Made by a program: the position numbers and the translations under genes
In this document: positions 6,598 through 37,554 of the stretch, one piece after another
Layout: each line of letters opens with the position of its first letter
How positions within the stretch are numbered: the first letter of the stretch is position 1
The notes under the pieces: model-generated
What the model saw: the letters and a program-made list of their open reading frames with translations, nothing else
What the model was told of the DNA's origin: nothing
The model's database searches: none
Assembly: GCA_966112985.1 (NCBI GenBank)
Contig: CBHWET010000001.1
Location: 40,053 to 104,052, forward strand
Direction: 5' to 3'
Source: an uncultured bacterium
GTDB lineage: Bacteria > Verrucomicrobiota > Verrucomicrobiia > Limisphaerales > JACDHS01
DNA length: 64,000 nt

Positions 6598-6599
6598 GT

Positions 6600-10100: not shown

Positions 10101-10105
10101 GTTGT

Positions 10106-10690
10106 TCAGAGACGATAGTGATCGACGTTAAACGCTCGGTAGTAACGTTGATCCGGCAGACAACCGAACAAACGCAGTCGTGAACCCAAGCCCTCTTGGA
10201 AAGTGTATTCTCCGGGAAAAAACATGACTACCGGATGCGGCATCATCGCGGGTTGCAGCGATTCAAGAATGGTGTGGGTTCGCAGGAATGGATATACGTG
10301 TCCGACACCTGTAATTAACGAGAGTTTGATTTCCGGGCCGCTGATTAGACGAACCAGACGCGGAATTAGAGTAGCTTTCGGATCGGCCACGTTGTTCAGC
10401 ATTTCAAGCATTTTGCGTTTGCCAAGGGAGGCTTCCTTCTCAATTGCTTTGTCGAGGCGACCGGCTTCCGACAGAATATCCAAAACCAACTCAAAAAGAT
10501 CAGCCCGGGCCACCGAAACGCCGGCGTTTTGAAGTCGGGCGAGCAACGCCTTTACCGTTTGGTTCATCTTGTCCTCGTCTTGAGGCTGATACGTCTTGAT
10601 GAAAATGGGCACTTCATTTGCCAACCCTTTCATACAGAGAAAATCTGGATGACTGAGTAGACGAAAAAGTTGGTCTGCTGACGCGCTCAT
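10106..10690 (-). CDS. brxB: BREX protein BrxB (DUF1788)
   Basis: About 194 aa after trimming to ATG 10690 (MSASADQLFRLLSHPDF...), which overlaps the brxA stop as ATGA. The C-terminal block GVGHVYPFLRTHTILESL resembles the conserved BrxB motif. It lies between brxA and brxC. Confidence 0.8.
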   Translation of the reverse strand: MSASADQLFRLLSHPDFLCMKGLANEVPIFIKTYQPQDEDKMNQTVKALLARLQNAGVSVARADLFELVLDILSEAGRLDKAIEKEASLGKRKMLEMLNNVADPKATLIPRLVRLISGPEIKLSLITGVGHVYPFLRTHTILESLQPAMMPHPVVMFFPGEYTFQEGLGSRLRLFGCLPDQRYYRAFNVDHYRL

Positions 10691-11328
10691 TTCACACTCG
10701 CTTTCGAGATTTCTTCGTCCGTCCAAAGAAATGCCGCCATGAGTTGTGGTTCGTCGGTCATAACGCATCCGAGCACGCCGGCGGGGACGGATGGTCGTTG
10801 AATCCGGTATTCCTTATTCTGTTCTTGAACAAGTCCCGCCTCCTGCAACATCAAAAACAAAACCGTTCGGATCTTCGTTTGCGTCGTTTTTGAAAAACCT
10901 TCGAGGTCGGGATGCGCGAGAATCTGACTCGCAACGAAACTTTCATAATCGGAGGGCCGAAGTATAGGGTCGAAATGTGCCAGTTTTTCGCGGAGAACGT
11001 TTTCCACGAATTCCCAAATAAATGCTGAGTGTTTGACTGCGGCGATCCATGATATTGCGAGCCGCTCGTCTTTCGTGCCATCACTCAACAAGCGAAGTTG
11101 CTCGTGGGTGAGGCATTGCAGGCGCTGACGGAATTCTCGCTCGATTCTTTTCAGCGAACCTGCGCTTCGGCATTGAATGGCATTCGTTCTCAAAATCTCA
11201 CCCTTCGCGGTGTCCCAACTGCCATGTTCCAAATACTTCTCCGCCACCACCCGCGCAATTTCAGGGCGTAGAGACGCGGCGGTGAAGCTAAAGCTGTAAA
11301 AACCTGAAATTGACGAAGCACTACGCAT
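10687..11328 (-). CDS. brxA: BREX protein BrxA (DUF1819)
   Basis: 213-aa ORF and the first gene of the brxA-brxB-brxC-pglX string. It is translationally coupled to brxB. The size fits BrxA. The call rests mainly on synteny. Confidence 0.7.
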   Translation of the reverse strand: MRSASSISGFYSFSFTAASLRPEIARVVAEKYLEHGSWDTAKGEILRTNAIQCRSAGSLKRIEREFRQRLQCLTHEQLRLLSDGTKDERLAISWIAAVKHSAFIWEFVENVLREKLAHFDPILRPSDYESFVASQILAHPDLEGFSKTTQTKIRTVLFLMLQEAGLVQEQNKEYRIQRPSVPAGVLGCVMTDEPQLMAAFLWTDEEISKASVK

Positions 11329-11403
11329 GCTTCCCTTTCATTGAATCGATGCTCGTGGCGGTGGGAATTGGCGCAGGCTTATGGAAATCCGCGAGGCTTA
11401 CGC

Positions 11404-11422
11404 CGCGATAAGTTCTATCGCG
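11404..11422. promoter_or_regulatory. 7-bp inverted repeat (CGCGATA-agttc-TATCGCG) in the brxA upstream region; candidate operator or weak hairpin
   Basis: Read directly: cgcgata (11404-11410) and tatcgcg (11416-11422). It sits in the 231-bp gap between the cap3 stop (11560) and the brxA start (11328). Confidence 0.25.
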
Positions 11423-11559
11423 TTCTGTGAGCCCTGATCGAGGTGCTTTGCATGATACGCTAATTTTTTGCACGCTTAGACTTGCCCCAGCGACGGTAAT
11501 GAAAAACGGATGGCGTCGGAAGATTTTTCTGTGCTTTGTTCGTTAGGCTGCTGGAGGGA

Positions 11560-12105
11560 TTAGCTTGATTTTTCAAACAGCTTTTTGCCAATACCCTTCG
11601 GGCTTTCATGATTTGTAAACGGAGAAAAGCGGTAATAGCCCTCCTTGTCGTGGAGGCTCACCCACAGACCTGCCGGGAAATCGGCCTGGCCCACGATCAC
11701 CATCACAAATGATTTGAGTTGATGACGGGACTTGCTGAAGCAGTCCTGCATACTCTTCAAATCGGTGCCAGACGGCGAAGGGATTGGTTCAGGATGAGTA
11801 TGCCAGTCGCCAACGAAATGAAGGCGCTCCTTAAACAGCTTTTGGATCTCGGCGTTTTGCCGTTGCTGATTCGGGATGAACCAAAACCGTCCGCGTTTGT
11901 CTTCGTTTGCCGGCCCTGTCGCAACTCGAATACAAACGCGGCCAGGTGAAAACTCCGCAAAGAGTTGTCCGCCCACCTCAGGAGCGTTTACTGAAGCCTG
12001 TCTGTGCTTGTTAAAATGCAGGAGCACGTCAGAACAGACGAAAAGTTCCTGCCCGGCTTTCTCACCGCGAAAAGACAGCGATTCAAATTTGGCATTTCGG
12101 CTCAT
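11560..12105 (-). CDS. cap3: CBASS Cap3, JAB/JAMM (MPN+) isopeptidase
   Basis: 181 aa with a JAMM motif HTHPEPIPSPSGTD (HxHx7Sx2D) and an upstream Glu (PEVGGQLFAE). The start ATG shares one base with the cap2 stop (TGATG at 12107..12103). Confidence 0.85.
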   Translation of the reverse strand: MSRNAKFESLSFRGEKAGQELFVCSDVLLHFNKHRQASVNAPEVGGQLFAEFSPGRVCIRVATGPANEDKRGRFWFIPNQQRQNAEIQKLFKERLHFVGDWHTHPEPIPSPSGTDLKSMQDCFSKSRHQLKSFVMVIVGQADFPAGLWVSLHDKEGYYRFSPFTNHESPKGIGKKLFEKSS

Positions 12106-13967
12106 CAGTCCTTACAAAGTGGACAGCGTGGCTCGCGTTGCCAAGGCTGGCAGAAAAATCGTTTACCCAGGTCCGTTGGTGTCATTCTATTTTTCCATGT
12201 TGTACAAAGCGCTCCATTAAGGCTTGAGAGACGGGAAAGGTCACCAATCCAAGTACGCCATTCAGGGCGTTCGGTTTTCTGATTGAGAACATCAAGAGCG
12301 AGTTCGGCGATGATCGCTTTGGTGGAAATGACATCGGTAACACCATACGGTTGATAAAAATCGCTGCATCCAGCCGCATGTATCAGAGTTTCGTCTGGCT
12401 TCTGCCATTCGACGACCTGCCCTTGAAACGACCCATGCTCTGTCATCCCGCACGCGAGACACCCGCCTTGGTCGTTTACCAATAACGCGTGTCCTGCTAT
12501 GCCGTAGGCTTCCGTCCATCCAAAAACAATTGGCGGAAACGTAGGCCACTGACGAGACGCCACATTAAGGGCACAATCGCTGGCCCAATCGCCCGTGGTC
12601 GAGATGACAAGATCGAGTCGGTCAAAAACTCCGGGTGTCTCACGCAGAATAAACTCGATGTCACGACCACCACTCGTTTCGACGGAAAGACCCGGCAATT
12701 GCTTTTGCATAAATGCCGCGAGCGCGTCGCTTTTCCTCTGGTGGACAGAATCGACGCCCAAGAGGTGTCGCCCAACGTTATCAAGGGAAAGCAATTGATT
12801 GTCGGCGAGGTAAAAGCCACCAACTCCACTTTTCGCGAGAAGGAAAGCAATGTCAGCCCCCAATGAACCGCAGCCAAAGATTCCGACACGTTTTTCGGCT
12901 AAGGCAGCAGAAAGCCCGTTTCCACCACGCGCATGGATCCACTCGCTATCTCCGCGAAACGCATTGGCCCCCATCGCGGGCATTGAGCCGAAATAGCGGT
13001 TCAAGAGAACATCAGGAGGAAGCTTACCGTGACGGAAACCATCGTTCCTACAATCGCGAGAATTCTCGCTTACGATGTTGGAAATCTTTGGCTCTTTCAG
13101 CACGAGGCCGGCCAATACCGGTCCGGCACTCGTCCGAAATCCAAACATGACGGCCAATGTTCGAGATTCCTGGGGAATAATCTGCAAAAGTAGCTGGTCG
13201 ATATTGGCGTTCGATTCTTGCGCTAATCGTCGAAAAGCTCCGCTTGTCCCTGGATACTCTTGCGGGTAAAGCGGCTTTTCCAACCAAACAAATACAGATG
13301 GGCGAATTTCCATTCCTTTTGGTGAAACTCCGCCATTGAGATTTTTTACCCATTGTCGGCACTGCTCAGGGGTTTCCGCGAACAATGTGAAGTTGTTTCC
13401 CGACCAATAATAAACAAGCCGTGTTTCCTCCCTCGGCGTCAGGACCGACCAAAATGGAGTCGCTCTTTCAACCAGATGCCCCGGCCAATAGCTCTGAAAT
13501 TCAGTAATGAAATCCTCTCGGTTTTTGCCCGCAACGGAATCCGCAAGCAACTGACCGGCCTGATCAAGAAGGTACTTCACAGTCCCTGTCGGGCGGGCGG
13601 GAGAAAAAGAAGCTGGTCCGGGAGCCAGGCAAAGCTTCCCCGTTTTCTCTACATGCGGAAATTCGAGGTGATACGACGTTTCCTTTAGAAAAATTTCCGG
13701 CGGATGAAATGGAAAATCGCGACCAATCAAAATACGGACAGCGAATTTCTGGGCATTCACGGACAAATCGGCGAACCAACCCGCGAGTCTGTTACCTTCG
13801 CGAGCCAGTTCACCGTCGTTCATCCGTCGGGCAGCATAGTGCGAAACCAAAAATTCGTTAATCTGTTCGATTTGCGCGTCACGTACTCGCCGAACAAGTT
13901 TAGACCGTTCAGCCAAATCGACCTCCTCCGGCCTTTTGAACTGGTGCCGTCGGTTCTTCGTTGGCAA
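12105..13967 (-). CDS. cap2: CBASS Cap2, E2-like/E1-like (ThiF) fusion
   Basis: The N-terminal region has a UBC-like HPP motif and a Cys (FPFHPPEIFL...KTGKLCLAP). The centre has a ThiF/E1 Rossmann block (RVGIFGCGSLGADIAFLLAKSGVGGFYLADNQLLSLDNVGRHLLG). CxxC pairs are present (GGCLACG, RCPLCKD). The ORF-track start 13967 is a TTG. An alternative TTG at 13916 is preceded by GGAGGAGG and would overlap the CD-NTase stop by 8 nt. The first ATG is 13823. Confidence 0.85.
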   Translation of the reverse strand: MPTKNRRHQFKRPEEVDLAERSKLVRRVRDAQIEQINEFLVSHYAARRMNDGELAREGNRLAGWFADLSVNAQKFAVRILIGRDFPFHPPEIFLKETSYHLEFPHVEKTGKLCLAPGPASFSPARPTGTVKYLLDQAGQLLADSVAGKNREDFITEFQSYWPGHLVERATPFWSVLTPREETRLVYYWSGNNFTLFAETPEQCRQWVKNLNGGVSPKGMEIRPSVFVWLEKPLYPQEYPGTSGAFRRLAQESNANIDQLLLQIIPQESRTLAVMFGFRTSAGPVLAGLVLKEPKISNIVSENSRDCRNDGFRHGKLPPDVLLNRYFGSMPAMGANAFRGDSEWIHARGGNGLSAALAEKRVGIFGCGSLGADIAFLLAKSGVGGFYLADNQLLSLDNVGRHLLGVDSVHQRKSDALAAFMQKQLPGLSVETSGGRDIEFILRETPGVFDRLDLVISTTGDWASDCALNVASRQWPTFPPIVFGWTEAYGIAGHALLVNDQGGCLACGMTEHGSFQGQVVEWQKPDETLIHAAGCSDFYQPYGVTDVISTKAIIAELALDVLNQKTERPEWRTWIGDLSRLSSLNGALCTTWKNRMTPTDLGKRFFCQPWQREPRCPLCKD

Positions 13968-14922
13968 TCACCAACGAATTCTTCGAACTGTTTTCTTCAA
14001 TAAGGTCATCGAAATAATCGGTATCGAAGACCTTCCGCCATGCTTTGAGTGCCTGCTTTTTAGAGTCGGTGGTTTCAAGGACTTTCAATTCGTTAATTGC
14101 CCATGCCAACCGCTCGCGCAATTCCTTCATGCAAGCATCTTCAGTTGTCTTAGTGAGCGTCTCCGATAGAACTGGATGTTGAACAACTAACGAGCCATCG
14201 AGTCGTGATTTGATCGCCTTGATAAGGCTGTAGAAGGCTCGGTCGTCGCGCTCGTCAAATGTCCAGTAGCGCTCATCCGTAAGCACTGTGAGAATGAAAC
14301 CGCTCGGCATGTTCCAACTCGCCCGACTGATGCAGAATTTTTTGAGGAGCCGAATCATGCGCCGCATTTGGTGTTGGCCTTCCTTTTCCTGCGAGGAATG
14401 TTTGGCTTTCAATTGCTTTTGAAACCATTCTGTCACTGCTTCCGGATTGGACTTTTTCCAATCGCCGCTCGCAATTTCGTAAAGCGTACTTTTGGAGTCC
14501 GGGTTCTCCATCCGATATACAGGAACATCGACGTGATGGCCCTCGTTGTAATAGACACGGACGCAATTCTCTCGAACCTCCGGCTTCGTTTTGAAGGCTT
14601 CGTCGTAAAGCGCATCGCAGACCATTTTGCGAGCATCGAGCGCCGTCTTGTCGGCTCCTTGCTTTCCTTTGAGCGATTCCTTTGTGAAGACAACACCGTC
14701 ATCAATGTCGTAATCGTTTTTGGGGTGCTGAACGGTTGTGCGCATGGCGTATGAGCCTTGAAGAACGAAACGGTTGGGCGCCGGCTCCTCCGCGTCCTTC
14801 AACCCTTCCTTTAGCCGCCGTTCATTTGCCTCGGCTTGGTCTGAAAGTTTTTTCCGAATATCCTCCGATAGCTTGACGCGATCGTCGTGGAATTTTCTGA
14901 CTTCTTTACTGCAATCAATCAT
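13909..14922 (-). CDS. CBASS cGAS/DncV-like nucleotidyltransferase (CD-NTase)
   Basis: 337 aa. It has the GS motif and the first two catalytic acids (LQGSYAMRTTVQHPKNDYDIDDGVVF) and a third Asp strand (GHHVDVPVY). The ATG overlaps the capV stop as ATGA. The C-terminus ends ...KAGGGRFG-stop. Confidence 0.85.
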   Translation of the reverse strand: MIDCSKEVRKFHDDRVKLSEDIRKKLSDQAEANERRLKEGLKDAEEPAPNRFVLQGSYAMRTTVQHPKNDYDIDDGVVFTKESLKGKQGADKTALDARKMVCDALYDEAFKTKPEVRENCVRVYYNEGHHVDVPVYRMENPDSKSTLYEIASGDWKKSNPEAVTEWFQKQLKAKHSSQEKEGQHQMRRMIRLLKKFCISRASWNMPSGFILTVLTDERYWTFDERDDRAFYSLIKAIKSRLDGSLVVQHPVLSETLTKTTEDACMKELRERLAWAINELKVLETTDSKKQALKAWRKVFDTDYFDDLIEENSSKNSLVIANEEPTAPVQKAGGGRFG

Positions 14923-16043
14923 AACGATTTCCTTTCTGGTGTTTGTAATGGGGGCATATTCTGAAAAACTCCTGAGATGATACGTCCGTCCTCATTGCTA
15001 TCCTTTTCCTGGCAGAGCCGGTACGCCTCAATAGCATCGTCAGCACCGAAGCTTGAAAAAGCGAGAAGCGCATCTTCACTGGCGAGATCCATCTGAAGAA
15101 ACTTTAAGTGTGCCTCGGAACGACGGGCTTCAGGAAAACGGATGATTTTGATCTCACGACCATTTTGGGATAAACATTTCGCGAGAAAATGCGCGGCGAA
15201 GTCTGCGCTCGACGCCTGCGCGTTCATCGCAAGTGTTAATGCCTTCGCTCCAGCCTTCCATTTCAATAGCCCCCGTCGAAGATCTTTTGATTTTAATACG
15301 TTTCCTTCCGGGGCGGAACAGGTTCCTACCGAAAGAATATGAATAGGTTGATCTTTCTCCGCTACCAACATAGCCTCTATCAATCCAATTAGAACCGGAT
15401 TATTTGCCGCAAGCCCGCCGTCCGCATACGTTTCGATCACTAAAGGATCTTGAGGTGAAGCAATGCCAGCCAGGGGCAAAAAGATCGGCGCTGCGCTTGT
15501 AGCGAGACAAATATCGACAAGCTTGTACTGATTATCCAAATCCTTTTTCGGCAGATGAGGCGTCTTGAAAACACGAAACTTTTCGTCAAGGAGTTTGACC
15601 GAGGTCAGGCACAATCCAATTTTTCGACGGTCATAGAGGCGAGCCACCGTTTCATTTCCGAAAAGTTCGTCCAACTTTTCTTTCAACGGAGCCGCTGAGT
15701 TAGCTGGTTTGAAGAAACTACCCAAGCTCCACCACAAAAACGGGAGCAGCCTTTGCGGTTGGGGCCGCATAAAAATCTTTGGCCCGACCTTTCGGTACAT
15801 CTCGATGATGTCATTTATTGAAAGGCCATAAGCCAAGGCGGTCGCTAGAATTCCACCGGTGCTGGTTCCGACAATGAGGTCAAAACCTTTTCCGATGTCT
15901 AATTCGACAGTTTTGTTCTGCTCGACAAATCGACCAGCCAATCGTTGCAGAAGAGTCGCCGTATAAAGGCCACGCATTCCACCACCATCGAGCGACAGCA
16001 CTACAAAAGGTTTTCGGTTCTTGGTCTGACAATCTTTCTCCAT
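14919..16043 (-). CDS. capV: CBASS effector CapV, patatin-like phospholipase
   Basis: 374 aa with an oxyanion hole motif (LSLDGGGMRGLY), a nucleophile elbow (GTSTGG) and a catalytic Asp motif (ADGGLAANNP). It is the first gene of the four-gene operon. Confidence 0.9.
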   Translation of the reverse strand: MEKDCQTKNRKPFVVLSLDGGGMRGLYTATLLQRLAGRFVEQNKTVELDIGKGFDLIVGTSTGGILATALAYGLSINDIIEMYRKVGPKIFMRPQPQRLLPFLWWSLGSFFKPANSAAPLKEKLDELFGNETVARLYDRRKIGLCLTSVKLLDEKFRVFKTPHLPKKDLDNQYKLVDICLATSAAPIFLPLAGIASPQDPLVIETYADGGLAANNPVLIGLIEAMLVAEKDQPIHILSVGTCSAPEGNVLKSKDLRRGLLKWKAGAKALTLAMNAQASSADFAAHFLAKCLSQNGREIKIIRFPEARRSEAHLKFLQMDLASEDALLAFSSFGADDAIEAYRLCQEKDSNEDGRIISGVFQNMPPLQTPERKSL

Positions 16044-16155: not shown

Positions 16156-17076
16156 ATGTTCGAAAATCTATTCGACCGGCAGGGGCTATCCCTTGATCGA
16201 TTACGGACGTTTTGCGAAATCGCTCAATCCCGTGGAATTACCCGTGCCGCCAAGGGGAACACAGTCCGCCAATCCCAATTCAGTCGACAACTGAAAGAGT
16301 TGGAAAACTATTTCGGTGCGGAATTGTTCGTTAGAAAACGCAATACATTTCGACTGACACCTGCCGGCGAAAAATTGCTCCGTGTCGCAAACGAGTTCTT
16401 TGCGTCCCTCGTCACGGCAAACAACGAAATACAAAACCTTCCTCAAACAATTTCCTTTGGAGCAGGAGAAAGTATTTTCAACTGGCTGCTTTTCCCGCGT
16501 TTCTCGAACCTGCATCAATTGTTCCCAAATTTTTGCTTTCAGTTCCGGAACCTGCAATCCAATGAAATCATTCGCGAGATACAAGAATCTGAACTCGATT
16601 TTGGGATAGTTCGGGAAGACGCCTGTCCGCGGACGCTCGAAAAAAGGAAGCTTGGCTCAATCAGTTATTGCCTGTTCATGCCCAAGCAGATTAAGGCACC
16701 CAGAGGATCGCTCCCACAAAATACGGTTCTAAAAAATCTCCCGCTCGCGACACTCGAAGGGGATGGCCAGTTTAAGACCATTCTATTTGAGTCGGCAGAG
16801 AAGCACGCCATATCGCTCAACATCAAAGTCGTGTGCAGTTCATTCCCACTAATGACGGAAATTCTGAAGCACGGACATGTAGCCGCAATCCTGCCAAGCA
16901 TCGCTGAAAGCGAACTCCCAAAAAGTCAATTCGAACGGATAGACCTTCCCATGTTGAAACAAATGCAGCGACAATACGTTTTATGCTACCGAGCAAGAAC
17001 ACTTGAGCGCCGAGATTGCTTGCAGCGTGCCTTGGCAGCACTCGTTAAACATCTCCAAATTGGAGGAACTTGTTGA
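16156..17076 (+). CDS. LysR-type transcriptional regulator (LTTR)
   Basis: 306 aa. The N-terminal wHTH is typical of LTTRs (LDRLRTFCEIAQSRGITRAAKGNTVRQSQFSRQLKELENYFGAELFVRK), followed by a periplasmic-binding-protein-like effector domain of the right length. It is divergent from capV, with a 112-bp intergenic region. Confidence 0.85.
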   Translation: MFENLFDRQGLSLDRLRTFCEIAQSRGITRAAKGNTVRQSQFSRQLKELENYFGAELFVRKRNTFRLTPAGEKLLRVANEFFASLVTANNEIQNLPQTISFGAGESIFNWLLFPRFSNLHQLFPNFCFQFRNLQSNEIIREIQESELDFGIVREDACPRTLEKRKLGSISYCLFMPKQIKAPRGSLPQNTVLKNLPLATLEGDGQFKTILFESAEKHAISLNIKVVCSSFPLMTEILKHGHVAAILPSIAESELPKSQFERIDLPMLKQMQRQYVLCYRARTLERRDCLQRALAALVKHLQIGGTC

Positions 17077-17152: not shown

Positions 17153-20100
17153 TTACGCCTCGACAATGCGATAAAGCCGACACTCCTTGTCCGTGGTCAT
17201 CAGCCGGTAGATTCCTCCAGAAAGTTCGACAACTACACGCAATGTTTTGACAGCCGCTGGTCCGGTTTTACTACGTCGCACCGTAGGAGCGTTCTCGTCA
17301 ACTATTGCAAATTCAATTCGACGATCATGGAAATCACGCGCTCTTACCCGGGAAAGCTCAAACACGTCAATTTCGGCAGTTGGGTTCACCGAACTCAGAA
17401 ATGTCCGCGTCAAAGCCGCGATTTGCTTTCGCAGTTCCTGCTCAGCCAATTTGCTGGACTGAGCGTACTGCACTTTGATGACTTTCGGCGGACTGGCCCA
17501 AAGCTTCTCCATAACGCCAAAAAGCCCTTTCAAAGATGCCAAAGCGTCTTGGTCGGCCGTAATGTACGGATCACTGATTATTATCCGCTCGATTTTGGTT
17601 CCTTTTAAGAAACTGAAATCCTGATCGAGTTTTCTAGAGGATCCAGGAGTGTACTCCCGTCGATAAAACGCGGCAGGCGGCTGGATTTTTTGGGCAGGAA
17701 TCAATTCGCTTGTCGCTTTGATGGCCTCCAAGACGCTAGTCCCCGGTGCTTTGCCGAGAAAAACATGCTCGCCCAATAGCTTGTGTAGAACTGCAGCCGG
17801 AGCACCAGCATCGTAAAGACATACACAACCGTCTTTGCTCTCCGCGATCATTCTCAAGCGCGATGGCAAACTCTGTTGGTTTTTAATCCGGTGGAAGACG
17901 AGGCGGCCTTCCTTGCAGTAAGGCGAAAACCATTCCGTTGCAAACGCTGCTTTGGGCAAGTGAGAATCGCCAAAATCGGGAAAGACCGAGCAATAAATTG
18001 ACACCGTCTTTTTATCAACGAGCCATTTGTGAATTCTTTCCCATTCTGGAAAAAAATGTTCCAATCCAGAGGTGTTGTCATCGCTCCACAGCGGACCGAC
18101 AAATTCTCCAAGGCTTGGAGCAAGAATGTGAATCGCACGGGCTTTGTCGAGCGCTGCGAACGCGCCGGACTTCGAGATTCCCTCCAAACTCAAGCCAGCG
18201 TTCCAATCTTTGACGGCCAGGTTCGAGAGACGGTTAACCCATTCCAGAGCAGCAATTCTCTTGAACTGGTCCCAGTAAGTTTGGTTCGAGTAGGTGCAAA
18301 CACAGTGGCTGCACCCGTTGGAACAGCTCCTCGCACAGTCAAGAATCTTGCCGGCTCGCTTAAGAAGATCTTGTGCTGTGTAGTTTTTGAAAAACATGCC
18401 TACATATCCGGCTCCCCCGGGGACAGTATCAAAAATAATGATCTCCGGTCCTTCACTCAGTCGCCAACGAAAGGTTGCTGAAAGCTGCCCTTCCTCGATC
18501 TCGATGGCCTCACTCAATGCGATGCGACATGCTTCGGTGACGGTTCTAGCAACAGCGGTGCGAAAGGCGCCATGCTCATTCGGGTTTAGATTGTCAGGCA
18601 CCTGAATCCTATGGTCGATTCTCACCTGCAAGACGTCGGTTCGAAACTGGTGTGCAAGGTCTTGAGCCTTGTGTTGGAACTGTCCGTTGCACTCGGTGCC
18701 CGTGTAAGGATCCCGGTGGGCTGACAATCGGAACGCGTTCGGGTCGCCAGTGATAACTTCGGTATATCGACAACTGCAACGTTTGAAGCCGTGTCCTCTA
18801 CCCTGATTGACGACGAGCATTGTCCCTTCCTTTGCACTCTGAATCGCCCAGCTAATACCTTGGAGTGGCGAGTCACAAAAATCTTCGTCCCGGGCAGAGG
18901 AAACCAATTGGGTTTCCATTGCTGCTGGCGGTCGAATGCGCGTTGCCCCAGGTTCTTTACCCTGGCTCTCGTGAACGGAGGTCACGAAGCTTCGTGGTTC
19001 GACAAACTCGCGGGGAACCCCGGGTATAGGCTGCTGACATTTGGGACAGGTTTGCGGAATTAAGTCAGGGGCCTCTCCAATCGCGACGTGACGACACATT
19101 CGGCAGACCTTGTAATACCTCTCTGGCATGAAATGTTTCGGATAAAAACCGATACCACGAGAAGTCCATACGCGTCCCTTCGCCACAATTTCGGCTCCTG
19201 GCGCGTACTCTACAATTCCCATTCTAGCGTCACGATCCAGTTCTAGGTCCTGTTCCCAAGGTGAACCAAAGCGCTGCTTCCGACTGGTCAGAATTTCTAA
19301 GCAGATGTTGTTAACTGGAAACGTGTACGTTGGAATAACACCAAAACGGCTTAAAAAATTTATCAACTGTTGCATCGACCATTTGTAAGCCATTTTCAAA
19401 AACCGATCGGCACGTCTGTTCTGCTGCCGGTCGGTTTCGGTCCCACCCTTCAATTCGTCGAACTTTGAAAAATAAAAGCGATGTCGATCACCGAATTCCT
19501 TCGCGATGTCAGAAAGCTCAGCAAAAAAGTCCTGTTTCAGAACCGCTGGGTCGCACTGCAGTTCCTTCAAACAATCAGCGGAGAGGTTGCTTCTGACCGA
19601 CTTTTCGAGTGTTTCGGCCAGCTTCAAATGCTTATTTGCATCTGCTGATTGCAACCATTTGGTAAGGCGCGAGAGAAAGTTCAGTTGATCCTCTTCCGAA
19701 AAACGCACCCTGGACTGATCTTCTGCATCTGGATCGTCTTCAGGGCCGGTGATTCTGGACAGCCCGAATAGTTGTCCGATTTGAAGCGACGATTCGTCCG
19801 GCACAACATGCTGTAAGAAACCTGCCAGCAGAATGGAATACTGGTGCCTTCGAAACAAACGCTGATTGTTCAAATGCACGAATGGGGTCCGAGGGTCTTT
19901 GGAAAGGAACTGCTCGGCGGTTTCGTAAACGATTTGGTCGAATCGGCGGTTCCTGGCGTAGGTAACACTGACTGGCGCCGCTTGCGCCCGCCGTCCTGCT
20001 CGTCCCGCTCGCTGTTGGTAATTACCTATGTCGGGAGGAACATTGCGCAGCATCACTCCTTCAAGATCCCCGAGATCGATCCCCATCTCCATGGTTGTTG

Positions 20101-23100
20101 AACAACTCAACACGTTAATGCGACCCTCTTTGAATTCCTTCTCTGTTTTTTCCCTGAGGTTTGTCGAAAGAGCCGCGGTATGCTCTCTTGCCACAGCACT
20201 GGGCATCTGCCGCAGTTGGCAGTAGAGGTACGCGTAATGGTGCTTTGTGAGGTGCTCGTTCCATACGCCTTCGTTAAGGTTAATCAACCGACCATTGCAG
20301 CCGAACTGAGGGCAAATCTCCCCGAGATCAAGGGTTGTGACAAACGAGCAGTCCTTGCACTTTCGAATTGCAGTTGGAGCAGAAAGGCAAAACTGCATGC
20401 GTTTGTAATCCAGCACCATTCCGGGATGCTGTGTAGTCATTGGAACAAGTAGTTGAATTTCTGGATCGGTAAGCAGTTCCCAAAATCGAGTGAGGATCTG
20501 CTGCCATTGAGAAAGGCACAGTTTACGACCAATAAATTCACCCCATCGATTTCTATAAAACGATCCATTCGGTTTCAGTTTCGGGATCAGCCGAAATGGA
20601 ACATCCGTTAATGGCGCAAGTGAGAACGATCTCTCGGGCTGGGCGTACGCTCCCCAAATGAATTCGTCATCTCCAGTAATCCCCGGTGGCATTCGAATCG
20701 CACGATTATTGCGAATTCCATCCAATATCCATGTGAGAATCGACAGTGACCGCTGTTCGTGTTTTCCAAACAAACTTTTGATCCCCGATTCTGTGTCAAT
20801 TTCTTCGAGCGATGGCCCGTAGCTGACTGTAATTATACCTAAGTCGTCTAACGAATTCCGTGCTCCGCCCGGGAGGCAAAACTCTGCCAACACCTTTCCT
20901 CGAATAACCGTTTCCAAGTTGTCCTTTGGACTCTCACCATCACGATCAAGAACGCCGCGCTTAATTTCGGGTAACTTCAACAATTCGCTGACCAGCATCT
21001 CCACATTCAGCTTAACGCCTTGATGCTGCTTCATTATGTTCACGATTGCCCAACGAAGCAGGATTTCCTCGTGCCTGCGTTGAAAACTCGGCGCGAAAAA
21101 CGCCGCATCTTGACGATTGTCGCTGAACACGAGCAAGCTTCGACCATTGCCCGGTAATTTCCACGCGTCCTTTTTGTTTGTTGGGAGATGCGAATAAAGA
21201 ACCTCACTCACGACTTCAGACATTGCCTGGTCGCCCGGGTGAAATGGCGTGACGATCTCGTAGCGGTCCCGCCCACCACAAGACGGGCACGAGGTCATTG
21301 AGCCGTCGTTCCAGTCTTCATCAGCATCAGGCTCCCGCAGTGAGGCTCGAGTAGTTTCCAACCATTCATTAACGCGATCCTCCGGCAGCAGCCGATCTTT
21401 GATCTTCCCGTTGATCACATGTACAAAGCATTTTCCGACGGCTTCATCCTCCTCGGCTTCATCCTCGGCGCTCACCAAATTATTTTTTGGCTTCAACCAG
21501 AAGATTGACCTTTGCCACGCGCCGTGCCCGGGCCGGCGGCCTTTTAATTGACCCTGAGCGGCGGACTCGTATGCCTCGAAGTAAAGCTCGCCGCATTTTC
21601 TGCAAGTCAACAGCCGATACCGCTCACGATGTGCCTCCTCATCGTAAAAAAGGCGAGCGAATCGGAAATCTGAAAAACAGTCTTCGCAGTCGGAAGGGTG
21701 CTCCAAGCGAATGGTCGCTTCGTCGATCCCGGTGACAAAAAAATGATAGCGTGCTGGCAAGAGCGGGTAGCCTTGAGGTGTTTCTTTTGCAAATGCCCCC
21801 AGAGCAATGAGTCCTTTCAATGCGCCAGCGGCAGTATCCAGGGCAGCGGCTGGGAATAGCTCCGCAGCGAGTTTGCGAAACGCCAGGAACTTGTGGGTAG
21901 ACAGCAATTCAGAAGCTTTCTGAAGAGTCGGCTCCTTTGACAGAAGGGAGCACAAGCCTGCGGCTAGTGACCCGGCAGAAGGGTCCACGCTGCATCGAAC
22001 ATCAGCGGTTGTTACCTCTTGGTTCCATAATGAGACATGGTCTGGGCCGTCGTTATCCACGTCGGAGAGCACGTTCAAAATACCATGGAGTTTGATCCAG
22101 TCGCCGGGCTCCAAAGGCGAAATTTTGTTGCGTTGGGCGAGAAGACGGTGGGCCTTTCGCCTCGCTGTAATCGGCGGTTGAAATTCCGCGCCGAACAAAT
22201 CAGCAGCAAATTTCTTAATTCCGTCGGAGCTACGAGAATCCTGGGACAGGCTCGCACTGGTTCCAATGCATATCACTTTGCTGTCCGTGCAGTGCCGGTT
22301 CTTAAGCTTTCGAAGGAGCAAAGCAACTTCAGTTGCTTGGGCACCTCGATAGGAATGAATTTCGTCTAGAACCAGAAAATTCAGATTGCTTCCAGCGAAC
22401 AGGCGTGAGTTCTTTGGAAGCAAAAGCAAATGCTCCAACATTGCATAGTTGGTCACGAGAATATGGGGCGGCGTTTCTAGCATCTCTGCTCTACTTAGAA
22501 GCCAGTTATCCGGAATCGACCTTTGAAAAAGCGTCTGGAAATACGGATCTTGCAAATATGAGGCGACAAATTCATCCCGTGTCCACTTCGCATTGGTCTG
22601 GCCGGTGTAGCGTCCTACGGTAATTCCAAATTCCTGTAGACGGACAGCCAGCATCGGAAGTAGGCGATGGTACAGTTGGTCATTTGCCAGTGCGTTAAGC
22701 GGATATACTAACAACGCTCGAATGCCGGGTTTTCCCTTTACCTTTTGCTTCAACAACGAATCGATGATTGGGTAGAGAAAGCATTCAGTTTTTCCGGATC
22801 CTGTTCCAGTGGCAACAATCACATTTTGACCGTTGCTCGCAACCGCTTCAACAGCGTGTTGTTGGTGCAAGTGCATAGGACGTCCGTATTCCTCTTGAGA
22901 TAATTTGCTAAAACCTTCATGCAGGCTTCCGCTCTCAACGAGTTGTTTCAGTGATTTACCTTTTGGGAAATCCGGCAAAGCCTCCACGAAGGGGCCTTTT
23001 ACCAGCTTGTCTGGCTCCGAAAGCGTTTTCCCAGCGACTTGCCGCACTTTTGAAAATCGCTCGCTAATCGGAAGTGCTGTGAGCAGATACCGGAGAACGC

Positions 23101-23146
23101 GCTGTTTCAAGTCGTCGTGAAGCTGTAGTGGATCAATTTCCTTCAT
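17153..23146 (-). CDS. druE: Giant DEXH helicase with DUF1998 zinc module; DruE-like (Druantia)
   Basis: 1997 aa. It has motif I ([15 protein letters not shown]), motif II ([11 protein letters not shown]), the [10 protein letters not shown] block, motif VI ([11 protein letters not shown]), and a Cys cluster typical of DUF1998 ([19 protein letters not shown]). About 365 further residues follow. A protein of 1800-2100 aa that fuses a helicase with DUF1998 is the Druantia hallmark. The start overlaps the upstream gene by 14 nt. Confidence 0.75.
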
Positions 23147-26100
23147 ATCGTCGTAACGGTTTGAGAGTTGCCTCCCAGTAGAGCATAAAGAACGAAAACA
23201 TCTCTGGCGCTAAACTAGCCAACAGGGAGAGACGAGTCGTCCGCTGTGCAACGCTGTTACGGCGGGGGCTTAGCAGCGTGTTAATCCGCTCCATGAACAA
23301 TTCCCTCGACAGCAATCCGTAACCAACAGAACGGCCGAGCCCGTTAATACACAGGAGTAGGTCGCACACCGTTTGGACAAGGCTGCTTTCTGCTATTCGA
23401 ATTGCAATCGAGAGTTCAGCGTAATTCGGAACTCCTGCAATGCTTTTGAGGGTCGGGGCAACAAGATCCAACTGGTTGCCCATCGCTTGAATTTCGCTAG
23501 TCAAACGACCAAGAGTTGTCCCGGTTTCATTCGCATTTCGTACTTGCTCCAAGGGACGAAAACGCCGGTTCAGCGCACGGACTGCAGAGAGTAAATGTTC
23601 GGGAGTTAATAACAGCGGTTTTTCGATCTCTGCCTGCTTAAAGTCTAATTCCTGGGTCTCGGTTGAAAGATAATTGAAGAACCGACAATGATCAAAATTC
23701 CGGAATTCCGCTTCCCGCCGACAAAATACTGAATGGGCATTTGCAAAATGATTAAGGAATTGAGCGTGAGCACAACCTTTTGGCGGGTGAAAATTGTTCG
23801 CGGCATATTCCGTCAGCGTAGCCGCACGAGCAACATGCCCAAGCTCTCGGAAGACCTGGGCTACGAACATTTGTTCAGGGCCAGCATCGCAAAATGTCGA
23901 GCCACGTTGAGTAAGTAGCGTCTCCTGACTGCTAAATATTAGGGCGGACTGAATGCTGAGTGATGTCTCGCTTTTCCGCGCTAAGCTATCCACTGCCAAA
24001 TCGGCAAATAAACGCAGCCGCTCTTCATCAACTGTCGAATACGCATGTTGACAAGCGAGAACAAGAGCAGTTTCAAGCCATTGAACAGTTGGCCAAACGG
24101 CCGATGAGTATTTGAATAAAAGAACGTCTTGCAGGGAGGAAATTACGCGGCGCAGTTGTTCATCTGAAATCTGGAAGTCAAATTGCGATTCGAAACAGTC
24201 TCCTTTGCATTGGTCGTTCGAGGCTGCGTTCAACAAGCGTGCTAGTTGCGAGTCGGATTTTCCGCCGACAGGATCGTGTCGAATAGCCAATCGACTTTCA
24301 GATAAACCGTGCTTGTCAGCGACGTGCAAGGCCTGCCACCGAGTCTGCCCTTCCTTTTTTGATCGAAAGTCTATGAAGAATAAACCTGGATCCAATTTAC
24401 CAAGGTCAACATGCACGGTTAAAACCCAATCGAACGCATCCAGCGAAACATTCAGATGAACACAACACTCAGTGGTGCTGTAAATTTCGAAAGCCCCTTC
24501 TTTGATTCCTATTTCTTTGTCTGCCAGCGAACTGTTATCCAGATCGAATTGCCATAATCGCACCCTAAGCATTTTGAGTTGGTTTTGACCAATTCTAAAG
24601 GTACTGCGATGCGAATTGCTTCCTGGCGTATGTTCAATCGTGAGATCTCGAGCAAGATTCGCCTTCGCGAACGAAAGTAAATCCACTCTGCGTCCTAATT
24701 GGTTCTCAGCATAAATCGTCGCGCTTTCTCCGAACTGACCCAAGAGTGCACCCAAACTCAGCGCTTGTTTCGACCGGCCGGGTTTAATCAAAGCGAGATC
24801 TTTGTGCGCACAGCGCAGAACCCAAGGCACTGTATCGCCAGACTGGATAATCAATTGTTCGGCTCCAGCAACCTCAATATTGCTCCCGACCGCCACCGAC
24901 CGAGTTTCAAGCTTCTCTGGATCAAATATCCGTAACCAAATGCCGGGTTTAGCTAAGACAAACATCCGCGACGGATGCTGAACCCCAATTGTAACTTCTG
25001 GACCGAGATGTTCTTGGGCAATCTCCAATCCTTTCGAAGACTGACGGATCCCAATCGAGGTGTTGGGATCCAGGTTCTCCGGCGGTTTATCGCATACGAA
25101 GCCGAAGTTCTTGGTAGTTCTTTGAAAGCCTTTCCAGTAATCGAACTTTCGCCTGAAGCTTCGCAACCGCCCTTCGGCACTCACCAGGATTTCGTGAATT
25201 CCGGCGGGCAGATTTTTGAGGAACGGAGAAACGAGAGTCGCAGAAACATCGTAGCTGAAGGACTGCCCAACCTTAACTCCACAGTCGAACGAACATGTCA
25301 TCGCCGGAACCCCGTGGTTGTCGAGGCATTCAATCCTGAATTGCATCGAGACGTCTCCATCTCCAGGCATGGGGGTGAAGGCAACAACTGAAAGATCAGG
25401 CCCGTAAAAGATCGGCACCCTATCGACTGTTTCTATCACTTTTCCGTGCTCGTCTCGAATGATCACTTCCGAGCCAACCCTGGGGCTTACAGAAAATTTT
25501 TGGTCTACACAGAATATTTCCAACGGCACCCGTTCAGGAAATATTTCCACCTCTGCCGTTTTGAATTTGTCGCCTGTCCTGAAGTCCGCATCCTCACTTG
25601 TTGCATGTTCGATCGGCAAAAGGACGTGATAGTTTCCAGCAGCCAAATCGATCTCGCGCCTGCCATTGAGTTGCAGGCGTTTTCCGTCTGTTGAGCGGAA
25701 AATGAAAAACGGCTCGATTATATCTGGCTGGAGTTTGATCGTGAATGCTTGATCTTGGAACTCGTTTCTCAACCCGGTCAATCGTACCTGCAAGGTTGGT
25801 TCAGGGAACTCTGATGCCTCCAAGGCTCGTTCGATCAGCGCGTTATAGGTGTTCGATCCAATTATCCAGCACGAATTAAAGCTCACCAACTTGGAACTCT
25901 GTTTTGGTAGGACCACTTGCATCGAGGCACTCTCAGGGCTGAAGCGCAGGTATGGTGATTTAATACTCTCGCCGCCTGTTTTTTGCCGAGCCTCCCGCAT
26001 CGGCTCGCGCCAGTGCGGCGGCAATTGATCAAAATCACGAGTACTGAAAGCTCGCAGAATAGCGCGACTAACCAATGGACCGACCGTACTATCCAAAGTG

Positions 26101-26666
26101 CGCCGGAGCCGGCTTTGGGCGAGTGGAACCTTCTCCTTGAGAACGCGAGCAAAACGGATGACTTGGCTGTCATCATCCAGGTCTGGACATGGATTTTTTT
26201 CGAGGTAAGTGACCACCGAAGCAGTGAGATGTGGCACCCAGTACGGAAGAATTCCCGCTTGGAAAATCACCGGTCGCAGATTGCGATCGGTGTGAGTTTC
26301 TTCTTCTGCTGGCGGCATAACGAGGCCCAGAGCCTTACATGCCTCTTCGAAGGCTACCGAGACTCGTGTTCGGCAGCTCATTGGAAAACCCATTTCCAGT
26401 TGCTGTTCGAGTGGGCGATAAAAATTCGCCTCGGTGACCCCTTTACCTATTGCAAGGGCGATTGCATAAGCGGTTGAGGCAGGAAAATTATTCAGAAAAA
26501 AAAGAAGCCGTTCAACGCGCCCATTAAGCTCACGTTTCGTTTCGGAAAGGATCTGTTCCTGCACGTTGGTCTCGACTGGAAGGAGGCCCAAAATCGTTGG
26601 AGTTTTGCTGGCTCCTATTAAGCCCGCTACATGATTGTTCAATCTGGTCAGTTGTGGGCTGGTCAT
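23133..26666 (-). CDS. 1177-aa protein with no recognisable motif, upstream partner of druE (DruH-like by position and size)
   Basis: A long uninterrupted ORF co-oriented with and overlapping the helicase gene. I could read no catalytic or nucleotide-binding motif. The assignment rests purely on architecture (Druantia type III = druH + druE). Confidence 0.5.
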
Positions 26667-27383: not shown

Positions 27384-28079
27384 ATGAAGCGTGGCTCAAT
27401 TTCGAAAAATTTTTGTACAATGAATTCAGAATCAAATCACCATAATGGTGGAGACAGCGGTATCAGCAATCAACCTCCGCGCAGCGCGATAGGCGATGTT
27501 CGATTGCAGCCGGCCGAACAAGCCGTATTGGAAAAGTGTGAGCAAACGATCGCTATGGGAGTTGGAACATTTGTGCTGGTTGGGAGCGCTCTCGCTCAAA
27601 TCAAAGACCAAAAATTGTATCGCCAGAAGTATCACACTTTTGCCGACTACTGCCGCGACCGATGGGGTTTCGGGAAGTCGCATGCCCACCGGCTGATAGA
27701 TGCAGCTGAAGTCGTTAAAAAGCTGTGCCCAATTGGGGACACGGCGTCTGCACTCCAGAATGAGGCGCAAGCCCGGGCGCTGATCAAAGTGCCCGAACAA
27801 AAACGAGCGCAAGTTCTCTCGCTCGCCAAACAACGTGCTGGCTCCTCCTCGATCACCGCCAAACTCATAGAGTCGTGTGGAATTGAGGTCCTGGGCCAGA
27901 ACCAAACGCGGAAGTCTACGCGGTCACCCGCGGTCAACCGGGGGGTGTTTTTGAAATGGGTGGGGTATCTGCGTGAAGTTCTCGCCAAGGAGGGAACGGA
28001 AAGGGTGCTCTGCGTCCTAACGGAAGCTGAGCAGCGCCAAATGCCGGTCCTTCCGCGTAACCGAAAGGAGGTAAAATGA
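27384..28079 (+). CDS. Hypothetical DNA-binding protein with a ParB/KorB-like HTH segment
   Basis: 231 aa. The segment YHTFADYCRDRWGFGKSHAHRLIDAAEVV resembles the HTH and neighbouring helix seen in many phage/plasmid ParB-type proteins. The stop overlaps the start of the next gene (ATGA at 28076-28079). An alternative start is ATG 27420. Confidence 0.35.
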   Translation: MKRGSISKNFCTMNSESNHHNGGDSGISNQPPRSAIGDVRLQPAEQAVLEKCEQTIAMGVGTFVLVGSALAQIKDQKLYRQKYHTFADYCRDRWGFGKSHAHRLIDAAEVVKKLCPIGDTASALQNEAQARALIKVPEQKRAQVLSLAKQRAGSSSITAKLIESCGIEVLGQNQTRKSTRSPAVNRGVFLKWVGYLREVLAKEGTERVLCVLTEAEQRQMPVLPRNRKEVK

Positions 28080-29174
28080 CGAACACAGGCATTCAGTGGT
28101 GTGATGACACTGTCAATCCAGTGGCTGGTTGCGATGGCTGCGAGCTATTCACGGGAATAGGCGCCATGCGCGAGGCGTTGATTTCCGGGTTGGCCCCCGT
28201 TGTTGCCAGTCGAACATGAGCAGCGAATTGCGAAAGTGGTGGAGCAGACGGTTGAAGGCATGTCTCAAACGGACTTATACCGTCACCGATGGAGCGTTGT
28301 AGCACGCATTGCGACCAAGGTCGGTCGTCCCGCTGACAACTCGGTGATCACGCGAGGTGCCGCGACGATCGAGAGTTCGGTAAAGTGCTACGCGGCTCAT
28401 CTCACGTTACGGTATGGAGGGAAAAATAAAGGGTATCCAAGCAAATTTGAAGAGCCGGAGTTGTTTCCGGGCAGAATGGCGCAAGCCGCGAAAGCGAAAG
28501 ATCTGCGCGGCCAAGTGCGTACGGAGAAGCCATGGCTGAACGATTTGCCGAGGTTGATCTTCATCAGCGACATGGGGGATTCGTTTTCAGCAACCGCACC
28601 ATTCGGTTACCTACGAGAGGAAATCATTGAGGTCGTGAAATCACCGGCTGGATGCCGGCACACCTGGCTGTGGCTAACGAAACGCCCGGATCGCATGCTC
28701 AAATTCGATAGGTGGCTGGAAAGCCAGAAAATCGATTGGCCTGAGAATGTGGTCGCGATGACGTCGGTCACATCCAGCAGAACGACGCATCGCGTGTTGC
28801 CACTCGCGAAGTTGCGAGCAAGATGCAAGGGTATATCGGTCGAACCGTTATGGACGCCGGTCTCGCTGCCGCTTCAAGGGATTGATTGGGTGATCCTGGG
28901 CGGCGAGTCAGGCAAGCACGCCAAACCGTTCGATTTGGAGTGGGCTCGCAACATACTGACGCAGTGCCGGGCAGCTGGAACGGCCTTTTTCTTGAAGCAA
29001 CTGGGTCGTTGCCCCGTGGACTACGGCGTCCCCATCCAGGTGAAGGATAAGCATGGGGGCGACTGGAGTGAATGGCCGGAATGTTTCCGGATTCGCCAAG
29101 TTCCTCAAATGTTCAATCGTTTGGTCGTCTCAACGACTGGTGCAATGAACAGGGATACCGGCAAAGGAAGATAG
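28076..29174 (+). pseudogene. DUF5131 (phage Gp37/Gp68 family) gene, split by a frameshift
   Basis: The frame from ATG 28076 gives MTNTGIQWCDDTVNPVAGCDGCELF... (the typical DUF5131 N-terminus) and stops at 28217-28219. The rest of the family (IFISDMGDSF, WLWLTKRPDRM, SVEPLW, IDWVILGGESG, FFLKQLG) is in another frame that is open from 28182 (track ORF 28200..29174, TTG start). The two frames overlap at 28182-28219, which contains a C5 run (28194-28198). Confidence 0.7.
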
Positions 29175-35298: not shown

Positions 35299-36279
35299 TC
35301 AAATGGGGGCAAAGGTCCGTTGCCTGATGAACTGGCCTTCAATCCAAAGTTCCTTGTCGGCCCCGATTGGTGCGACCCATTTGGCTAAACTTTGCATCGG
35401 AACTTCGCATCCTGCCTGCCGGCCTATACGGGCGGATCCGGCGATTGAAAGTTTCAAGTTTAAGGCTTTGCATCGATCTTCCGTTGGCCTCGCTTTTTTC
35501 CCCAATGGAATTTTCGTACTAAACTCAAAAAGGTCACAGGCAACCAGCCAGACGTCATGATAGCTCCACCCGTACAGGGTCACGATCGGCCAAGTCTCGA
35601 TCATCCACGTTTCAAATTGTGGCATCGTCCACTGCACCTTTCCTTTCGATCGTTTTGCGTCGGCAAACGCTTTGGCGGCACAAGGGGTGCAAATCCGGGC
35701 TAGTTCGCTGCTGAAGATCTCTGGCGGCAGGCCATCGCAGTGGCGATCCAAAAAACCCAACAATGCTGCTTCCCTGTTATTCGTTTCGGTGCGAAGAGCA
35801 TAGGACTGTTTTCTTAAGTATAAGTTCAGAGATTGTTCAGCCGCCGTTCTCCACTCCTGAAAGCGTTTCAACCAGAAACCCGGCTCCATTTCCTGCACCA
35901 GATTCGTTGACTCTGGTTTTAGCAACGCCGCTTCAAGCTTCCATCGCTCATTCGCAACAATGTGCGCACCAAGGTCACCGAGCCACAGGGGAATTGGCGA
36001 ATACGTTTGTTTCGCCCATTGAACAACGGCGGAACACCACGCCGGCACAATAAAGCATCTGAAGTAAAAATCTCGATCTACCCCCAGAGGAAACTGAATC
36101 TTTAGCTTTTCAGCTGCGGCATGTGCGGCTCGTTCGAGTGGGGTTGCCAAGCGCAGAGGCGGAGCGAGTAGCACCTCTGACGACTCAAGCTTTTTCGCAA
36201 TCCTTTGTCCTTGCGAAAGGATGTTCTGGATTTCCTTTTTGGTCGTCAATTTTTTCAAGGAATGTGGGGGCACGGTCAT
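35299..36279 (-). CDS. Hypothetical protein (326 aa)
   Basis: A long ORF overlapping the integrase stop by 4 nt. No motif was recognised. Confidence 0.55.
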   Translation of the reverse strand: MTVPPHSLKKLTTKKEIQNILSQGQRIAKKLESSEVLLAPPLRLATPLERAAHAAAEKLKIQFPLGVDRDFYFRCFIVPAWCSAVVQWAKQTYSPIPLWLGDLGAHIVANERWKLEAALLKPESTNLVQEMEPGFWLKRFQEWRTAAEQSLNLYLRKQSYALRTETNNREAALLGFLDRHCDGLPPEIFSSELARICTPCAAKAFADAKRSKGKVQWTMPQFETWMIETWPIVTLYGWSYHDVWLVACDLFEFSTKIPLGKKARPTEDRCKALNLKLSIAGSARIGRQAGCEVPMQSLAKWVAPIGADKELWIEGQFIRQRTFAPI

Positions 36280-37448: not shown

Positions 37449-37554
37449 CTTGCAGCAACATAGACCGTATGTAAAACGTATGCAAATCACTGATATTCAT
37501 TGTTGCTCATACCCAATAAAATCAATGGTTTTGAACGTTGATGAAGATGGTTGC

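Follow-up and report, generated by a model that had tools for sequence, protein, structure and literature searches.

Druantia type III, reported to be the commonest Druantia type, is encoded by two genes, of which the first specifies a large protein, DruH of the YjiT/STY4851-ECs_5259 family, and the second the helicase DruE. Five studies from 2026 give structures and biochemistry for this type, and the view taken in a preliminary description of the present locus, that the mechanism of Druantia is essentially unknown, is therefore outdated as far as type III is concerned. The 2026 preprints nevertheless conflict on the role of DruH, which is presented as an ATP-inhibited binder of single-stranded DNA (ssDNA) without nuclease activity, as a Mg-dependent 3′-5′ exonuclease with its active site in the N-domain, or as a sensor of phage proteins whose dimer is the nuclease; direct binding between DruH and DruE is disputed as well. 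Here we describe a 64,000-nucleotide stretch of contig CBHWET010000001.1 from an uncultured verrucomicrobial bacterium (the window), in which positions 17153 to 26666 hold two giant genes on the reverse strand. We consider it likely that these genes form a Druantia type III anti-phage module, that both of their proteins belong to deep, un-modelled branches and that the upstream protein of 1177 amino acids (aa), termed the partner below, takes the DruH role. On this reading the module is a divergent, un-modelled variant of Druantia III and not a new system, and it adds no new kind of immunity.

The organisation of the locus is that of Druantia III-A, as known from E. coli EDL933/ECOR19 and P. 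aeruginosa, in which the gene of the large partner opens a two-gene operon and is coupled to druE. In the window the gene for the DruH-like partner (23133..26666, reverse strand, ATG start, 1177 aa) immediately precedes druE (17153..23146, reverse strand, ATG start, 1997 aa), a YprA/MrfA-like superfamily 2 (SF2) helicase gene of the Druantia family, and the type III layout is thereby present without druA-D or druM/F/G. Both genes are taken from the list of open reading frames (ORFs), druE also from hidden Markov models (HMMs). The partner stop and the druE start overlap by 14 nt (23133..23146, reverse strand), a feature already reported in the preliminary description and confirmed here from ORF coordinates and sequence; the druE ATG lies within ...CGATATGAAGGAAATTGA, and the final three bases of CGATATGAAGGAAATTGA are the partner stop codon. 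This overlap translationally couples druE to the partner gene. ORFs of 1177 and 1997 aa are far above chance, and full-length homologues exist for both. As the genes upstream of the partner gene, beyond 26666, run on the other strand, the module is a two-gene operon, and its flanks consist of opposite-strand genes or of LysR and CBASS (cyclic oligonucleotide-based anti-phage signalling system) genes. The GC content is unremarkable, and a promoter and terminator scan returned counts at chance level only.

By its sequence the 1997-aa protein is a DruE, as had been proposed earlier for a DUF1998 helicase of about 2000 aa, and this assignment is borne out by DruE HMMs, by the match to a solved DruE and by the helicase motifs. 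The PADLOC models DruE1 (1.7e-183), DruE3 (1.8e-158), DruE2 (2.4e-110) and DruE4 (1.3e-100) all match, the best family outside DruE being SngC at 3.9e-29; in bit scores the DruE HMMs reach 336-611 and any other PADLOC family stays below 100. A search of PDB sequences places E. coli DruE (EcDruE, 9tu7) at the top with 3.1e-71, against 5e-22 for MrfA, over the RecA2 region, and 1e-11 to 2e-12 for Lhr. These values bear directly on the case that the preliminary description had set against its own proposal, namely that the helicase is a housekeeping repair enzyme of the MrfA/YprA or Lhr type and the upstream gene an unrelated neighbour. Pfam by itself shows only the generic DEAD, Helicase_C and MZB domains, and NCBIfam gives weak, sub-threshold matches to Lhr-like and ligase-associated helicases, both of which speak for this case, yet the protein is 1997 aa long with a large insertion in its core, the two overlapping genes are strictly kept together, and they stand in a defence island next to an integrase. 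MrfA of B. subtilis (PDB 6znp) likewise has an SF2 DExH core and an MZB/DUF1998 zinc domain, but it is only ~750 aa long, is without the BrxA-like/ZBM insertion, the phospholipase D (PLD) domain and a DruH-like partner, is encoded alone or with MrfB and outside defence islands, and serves mitomycin repair and not defence. We reject the housekeeping helicase as effectively refuted by the DruE scores, the size, the pairing and the context.

The domain order of the window DruE follows that of type III-A, with a DExH core, a large inter-RecA insertion, an MZB module and, probably, a C-terminal MIT_C-type PLD pair. DEAD, Helicase_C and MZB/DUF1998 lie above the Pfam cut-off and ResIII matched as well. 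The RecA1 lobe (residues ~83-320; 22187..22900, reverse strand; Pfam DEAD 2.7e-21, ResIII) carries a GTGSGKT Walker A motif and a DEIH box, and is parted from the RecA2 lobe (residues ~976-1116; 19799..20221, reverse strand), which matches Helicase_C at 5.1e-12 and, by HMM, EcDruE residues 1074-1206, by an insertion of ~650 aa typical of DruE. The MZB/DUF1998 zinc-binding domain (residues 1539-1616; 18299..18532, reverse strand; PF09369, 1.2e-8) comes with a Cys-rich cluster at residues 1604-1617, and both the SF2 DExH motifs and the zinc module are intact.

From its motifs and from weak profile scores, the C-terminal domain of DruE (residues ~1830-1997; 17156..17659, reverse strand) is probably a PLD-like nuclease of the MIT_C type. 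Here the protein reads ISDPY, FHDRR and ELSGG; among the orthologues the final 170 residues keep invariant SD(P/R)Y, HDR and EL(S/T)GG motifs, with the D, the Y, the H-D-R and the G invariant in 7 orthologues. The order of these motifs is shared with the active PLD domain of EcDruE (YSDRY...EHGRE...LDMGLS). Type III-A DruE ends in a pair of one inactive and one active PLD (MITD1/MIT_C-type), the active one being assigned to the MITD1 type in Table S2 of Bell et al. Three weak scores are in line with a PLD: PADLOC aligns the region to the C-terminus of ZorD (8.5e-7), hhalign to EcDruE gives E 0.036 over the SDxY motif only, and the Pfam family MIT_C (PLD-like) is touched by 1 of the 7 orthologues at E 0.25. 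Searches of the C-terminus against PDB sequences and against EcDruE return nothing significant. An HMM built from eight DruE orthologues aligns with EcDruE only as far as residue 1633.

None of the modelled DruE subtypes matches at member level, as DruE3 scores 528 bits here and 2185 for EcDruE. With DruE1 as the top model (611 bits versus 528 for DruE3), the locus could be taken for what is left of a Druantia type I (or IV) locus after decay or reduction with loss of druA-D. We hold this to be very improbable. The E. coli type III-A DruE itself scores 575 bits on DruE1, and the 'best hit' of the window protein consequently reflects only the shared DruE core; no neighbouring gene matches DruA-D; and the C-terminus resembles the III-A PLD and not the inactivated Vsr that types I and II are reported to carry. 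Finally, the two-gene layout is kept in more than 10 loci across phyla (L003-L011 and L014-L016). The decayed type I locus was therefore rejected.

The partner family holds 40 close homologues, and a filter-free HMM search extends it to 367 clusters at 50% identity, of which 241 reach E<=1e-10; its genome loci are mostly in metagenome-assembled genomes (MAGs) of Verrucomicrobiota, including Akkermansia muciniphila, with one relative from a Nitrospira MAG. When the loci holding DNA beyond an intact partner gene are counted, a full-length DruE orthologue directly follows the partner homologue in 8/8, and in all related loci, including L014 and L015, the two genes overlap or closely abut. A distant member of 1094 aa is likewise followed, with a 13-nt overlap, by a 1984-aa DEAD/YjiV_N/Helicase_C/MZB protein. 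In one Verrucomicrobiales MAG (L012, CBDBEZ010000139.1, 9001-12619) the partner matches in two pieces only, to residue 697, and the 9 kb beyond it hold no DruE; this copy of the module has probably decayed, given the broken partner and the missing DruE. The same module is present on the megaplasmid of Ralstonia solanacearum SL3022 (L016, positions 3576-12907 of that locus, CP023017.1 1904386-1913717), where an upstream ORF of 1142 aa (GTG start at 3576) matches the superfamily HMM over its whole length at 4e-134 and is followed by a DruE orthologue. The combination is therefore not confined to a phylum remote from the Enterobacteria, as had been suggested. The database record of this megaplasmid annotates just a 470-aa 'hypothetical protein' (5592-7004) within the 1142-aa partner ORF.

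Within the same loci the partner is 24-50% identical and DruE 40-63%, the partner thus diverging faster, and DruH is likewise described as diverging faster than DruE (PMC13192584). In a crude neighbour-joining tree, with ARMADA type II ArmC of E. coli EDL933 as the outgroup, two groups separate, one of DruEs that accompany a canonical DruH (E. coli, Chryseobacterium) and one of DruEs that accompany this partner family (window, Verrucomicrobiota, Ralstonia and the distant member). The partner family pairs with its own DruE clade, and partner and DruE co-diversify as a pair.

Whether the partner is a DruH can be asked of its structure and of its sequence. The AlphaFold2 model is confident (predicted local distance difference test 86, predicted template modelling score 0.79) and has three blocks: an all-helical N-terminal domain (residues 1-235, 12 helices; 25962..26666, reverse strand); a central beta region (residues 236-800, ~50 strands; 24267..25961, reverse strand) that the model and Foldseek describe as an array of immunoglobulin (Ig)-like sandwiches; and an all-helical C-terminal domain (residues 801-1177, 21 helices; 23136..24266, reverse strand). 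Solved DruH (PDB 9tud) is described by cryo-EM in 2026 as six Ig-like domains between a helical domain at the N-terminus and another at the C-terminus, and the partner is thus similar to the III-A protein in length, ~1100-1200 aa, and in the succession of a helical block, an Ig-like array and a second helical block. Block limits in the partner model are 4-230 (helical), 239-797 (beta, ~560 aa Ig-like) and 807-1172 (helical), and those in a model of E. coli DruH (EcDruH) built likewise are 9-247, 260-831 and 842-1118; the boundaries agree within ~35 residues, an agreement at the level of blocks. Foldseek matches the partner model to arrays of multiple Ig, fibronectin type III and macroglobulin (MG) domains (NCAM2, ICAM-5, contactin, complement C5, TEP1) and the EcDruH model to PDB entries of the same Ig/MG-array kind; one 2026 study names ICAM/NCAM as the top structural matches of DruH. 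The modelling and fold comparison that the preliminary description had called for has thus yielded a DruH-like three-block layout with Ig-array matches, although across PDB and BFVD the matches of the partner are generic Ig arrays only. An alignment of secondary-structure strings scores 396 for partner against DruH, compared with 89+-41 after full shuffling.

Sequence models of DruH do not recognise the partner, and this speaks for the alternative of a partner unrelated to DruH. Under that reading the protein would have replaced DruH and arrived at the helical/Ig-array/helical layout by convergence, DruE would be combined here with a partner that is new in the strict sense, and sensing or processing would proceed by another step. 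Scans of PADLOC (even at E<=10), Pfam and NCBIfam give no hit for the partner, in keeping with the earlier observation that it has no P-loop, nuclease, methylase or protease signature, and the model check proposed in the preliminary description therefore held for the helicase, which matches DruE models, and failed for the partner, which matches no DruH model. BLASTP against EcDruH and tblastn against plasmids returned no match, a profile from a 37-sequence partner alignment found no DruH among PDB sequences, and 8 distant members of the partner family gave zero matches to DruH sequence models. Pfam annotations, precomputed, are empty for all 40 close relatives of the partner, whereas 42 of the 43 DruH relatives carry PF27205, the exception being a 693-aa partial sequence, and 41 of the 43 also carry PF27201.

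The points that argue against DruH homology may be taken together. Not one of the 10 or more PADLOC DruH3 HMMs, NCBIfam or Pfam PF27205/PF27201 detects the partner, although EcDruH as a positive control matches 10 PADLOC DruH3 models; full-length hhalign of the 37-sequence partner alignment against a 31-sequence DruH alignment reaches a Prob of only 0.25%, with no gain when secondary-structure lines are added (the secondary-structure score stayed 0); and reciprocal unfiltered HMM searches (--max) between the families remain below 5 bits each way. Because the DruH HMM does find a distant DruH from Bacteroidota at 3e-28, namely a 995-aa protein that partners DruE on a Chryseobacterium plasmid, these negatives are no failure of sensitivity for ordinary DruH divergence. 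Shuffling the secondary-structure strings within blocks gives 384+-10, and the observed 396 is no better than this, so that the similarity of the strings lies in the block layout only. Sequence comparison of the beta and C-terminal domains with those of DruH yields no signal (E ~0.4). Lastly, the DruH-invariant residues R29/R35/E75 pair with T24/P30/L71 of the partner, with the chemistry not conserved; R22, K28 and E64 of P. aeruginosa DruH, which a 2026 study found to be required for defence, are taken here as EcDruH R29/R35/E75, and at such remoteness the residue register is uncertain, as is the numbering transfer between the two DruH proteins. With this pairing the putative DruH catalytic surface is not obviously kept in the partner. 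A C-domain ~95 aa longer than that of DruH (377 versus 281 aa) would also fit an unrelated protein, as would the fact that DruE partners differ from one Druantia type to another; on Nostoc plasmids, a neighbouring DruE clade has upstream genes for 967 and 307 aa.

Evidence for homology comes from the N-terminal domain, which was compared alone by domain-wise hhalign with 119 members of the partner superfamily. Partner and DruH N-domains align with P 6e-4, or 1e-4 after L-INS-i realignment (Prob 28-58%, score 31-38.5), co-linearly over 167-251 columns, values that belong to the twilight zone. Four motifs are paired, LGLLP/LYAYR, PAxxAYAxA/LFxLYAAE, FYxxL/WxWxxIL and FQAGIL/CEGGLP (partner/DruH), and these are the best-conserved motifs of both families. 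Column-shuffled DruH profiles score 13.3+-2.2 with maxima of 27 and 20, the observed score being reached in 0/150 and 0/120 of them, a reversed profile scores 14.5 and four real cross-domain comparisons score 13-18; the match thus stands above every control. Judged by sequence, the N-domain is the sole part of the partner with detectable similarity to DruH. Its family-invariant residues are L26, G27, L29, P30, A63, C110, Q136, A137, W143, D165 and H218, and in the C-domain the basic motif LNRRFRPLE (1032-1040), H1024, R1112 and SxAPE (1151-1155) are conserved. The ssDNA-binding residues of EcDruH are unconserved even within the DruH family and for this reason are of no use in judging membership. 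Together with the coincident block boundaries, an identical gene order and coupling and an excess of divergence over DruE as described for DruH, the N-domain match leads us to regard an unrelated partner as unlikely and very remote homology to DruH as most likely.

Placing the module within Druantia, we find the earlier designation as type III-like well supported by the DruE HMMs, the conserved two-gene unit and the defence island. The accompanying suggestion of a new subtype fares less evenly: the partner does escape the DruH models and its DruE does form a separate clade, but remote homology to DruH is favoured, and the term is tenable solely for a deep, un-modelled variant. From the III-A systems the window differs in a DruE of ~23% identity over conserved columns, in a partner that is invisible to DruH models and in the features of its N- and C-domains given above. 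That the partner superfamily defines an undescribed subtype, in which a DruH-like subunit has lost the conserved N-domain residues and would sense or process by another chemistry, with the DruE helicase-PLD effector kept, is a tentative idea that we do not favour at present, though it is to be taken more seriously than an unrelated partner. The 'type III-B / type III-like' systems, as characterised by Bell et al. (2025), similarly have a distinct DruE branch and one large accessory gene; their representative GIH50614.1 is actinobacterial and is listed there without a nuclease domain, whereas the window DruE keeps a PLD-like C-terminus. Set against III-B by description, the window clade may coincide with that branch. 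ARMADA type II, through ArmC of E. coli EDL933 (WP_000937974.1), shares a YprA-like giant helicase of the ARMADA-Druantia lineage, but the BrxHII-like helicase, PglX-like methylase and GajB-like genes that belong to ARMADA are absent from the flanks of the module described here.

By analogy with Druantia III of E. coli and P. aeruginosa as studied in 2026, we propose the following model for how the module might act. The DruH-like partner would respond to cues specific to infection: ssDNA or 3′ ends on the one hand or, by way of its fast-evolving Ig array, phage proteins on the other. DruE would load at ssDNA-duplex junctions of replicating phage DNA and unwind 3′→5′ using ATP, and its putative PLD domain would degrade the phage DNA. 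The phage would be cleared directly and not by abortive infection.

As PADLOC, Pfam and NCBIfam do not recognise the partner, Druantia III calls that require DruH would miss these loci, and if the interpretation of the module as Druantia III is true the prevalence of this type would be under-counted. The sequences gathered here could be used for new HMMs with which annotation tools could find such systems, including those in gut Akkermansia MAGs and in the plant pathogen Ralstonia solanacearum. Furthermore, architecture and association with DruE are retained in the partner family whereas the residues conserved in DruH are not, which offers a natural experiment on which features of DruH are essential. 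With the mechanism of Druantia III only now being worked out and the role of DruH contested, a deep sister family should be of help.

The module lies, as III-A modules do, in a defence island carried by a mobile element. The order along the window is GmrSD, PglX, BrxC, BrxB, BrxA, type II CBASS, LysR, the Druantia module, DUF5131/PDC-M41B and a tyrosine integrase. Family scans identify, on the reverse strand, a GmrSD-family type IV restriction gene (1335-3089) and genes of a BREX (bacteriophage exclusion) type 1-like system, comprising a PglX-like methylase (3091-6666), BrxC (6600-10100), BrxB (10106-10768) and BrxA (10687-11328); for the remaining BREX genes, PglZ and BrxL, the expected place is outside the window, ahead of position 1. 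Directly downstream of the Druantia module, a type II CBASS operon is present in full and, by the same scans and on the same strand, consists of JAB/Cap3 (11560-12105), E1-E2/Cap2 (12105-13967), the CD-NTase (13909-14922) and a patatin effector (14919-16043). Between CBASS and the module is a divergent LysR regulator gene (16156-17076), on the strand opposite to CBASS. On the other side, an unannotatable 231-aa ORF (27384-28079, forward strand) precedes a gene for a DUF5131 protein (28200-29174, forward strand; PADLOC PDC-M41B 7e-35, PDC-M30B 7e-33), and these two may form another candidate defence pair. The tyrosine integrase (36276-37490, reverse strand) probably marks the island edge: past it, to 42434, are DUF1501 and DUF1549/DUF1553/PSCyt genes typical of Planctomycetes-Verrucomicrobia, and housekeeping genes of the Planctomycetes-Verrucomicrobia-Chlamydiae type begin. 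No tRNA genes were found in the window.

Two further observations concern the variety of DruE partners. Long relatives of the partner (P0122-P0124, P0127, P0128, P0131, P0132, P0135, P0137 and P0141) reach ~1600-1750 aa through an N-terminal extension of ~500 aa. A Sigma70_r4-type helix-turn-helix (HTH) is found in 4 of the 5 long forms tested (3e-7 to 6e-4; above the Pfam cut-off in 3 of the 4), showing that the DruH-like scaffold is sometimes fused to a DNA-binding module; this sigma70 region-4 HTH hints at an association with DNA. On the Nostoc flagelliforme plasmid pNFSY05 (L017, 2167-12288), DruE is preceded by proteins of 967 and 307 aa, the former mis-annotated as 'ParA', and this DruE scores 762 bits on the HMM of the window clade, the highest among the DruEs compared from outside the superfamily. 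Attempts to bridge partner and DruH through the cyanobacterial 967-aa proteins failed on heterogeneous N-termini and poor alignment. The N-terminus of the Nostoc 967-aa protein matches the partner N-domain HMM weakly (10 bits), and its QSGIP motif is intermediate between the FQAGIL of the partner and the CEGGLP of DruH. Its family comprises more than 219 clusters, mostly cyanobacterial, and the 967- and 307-aa genes may be yet another set of DruE partners.

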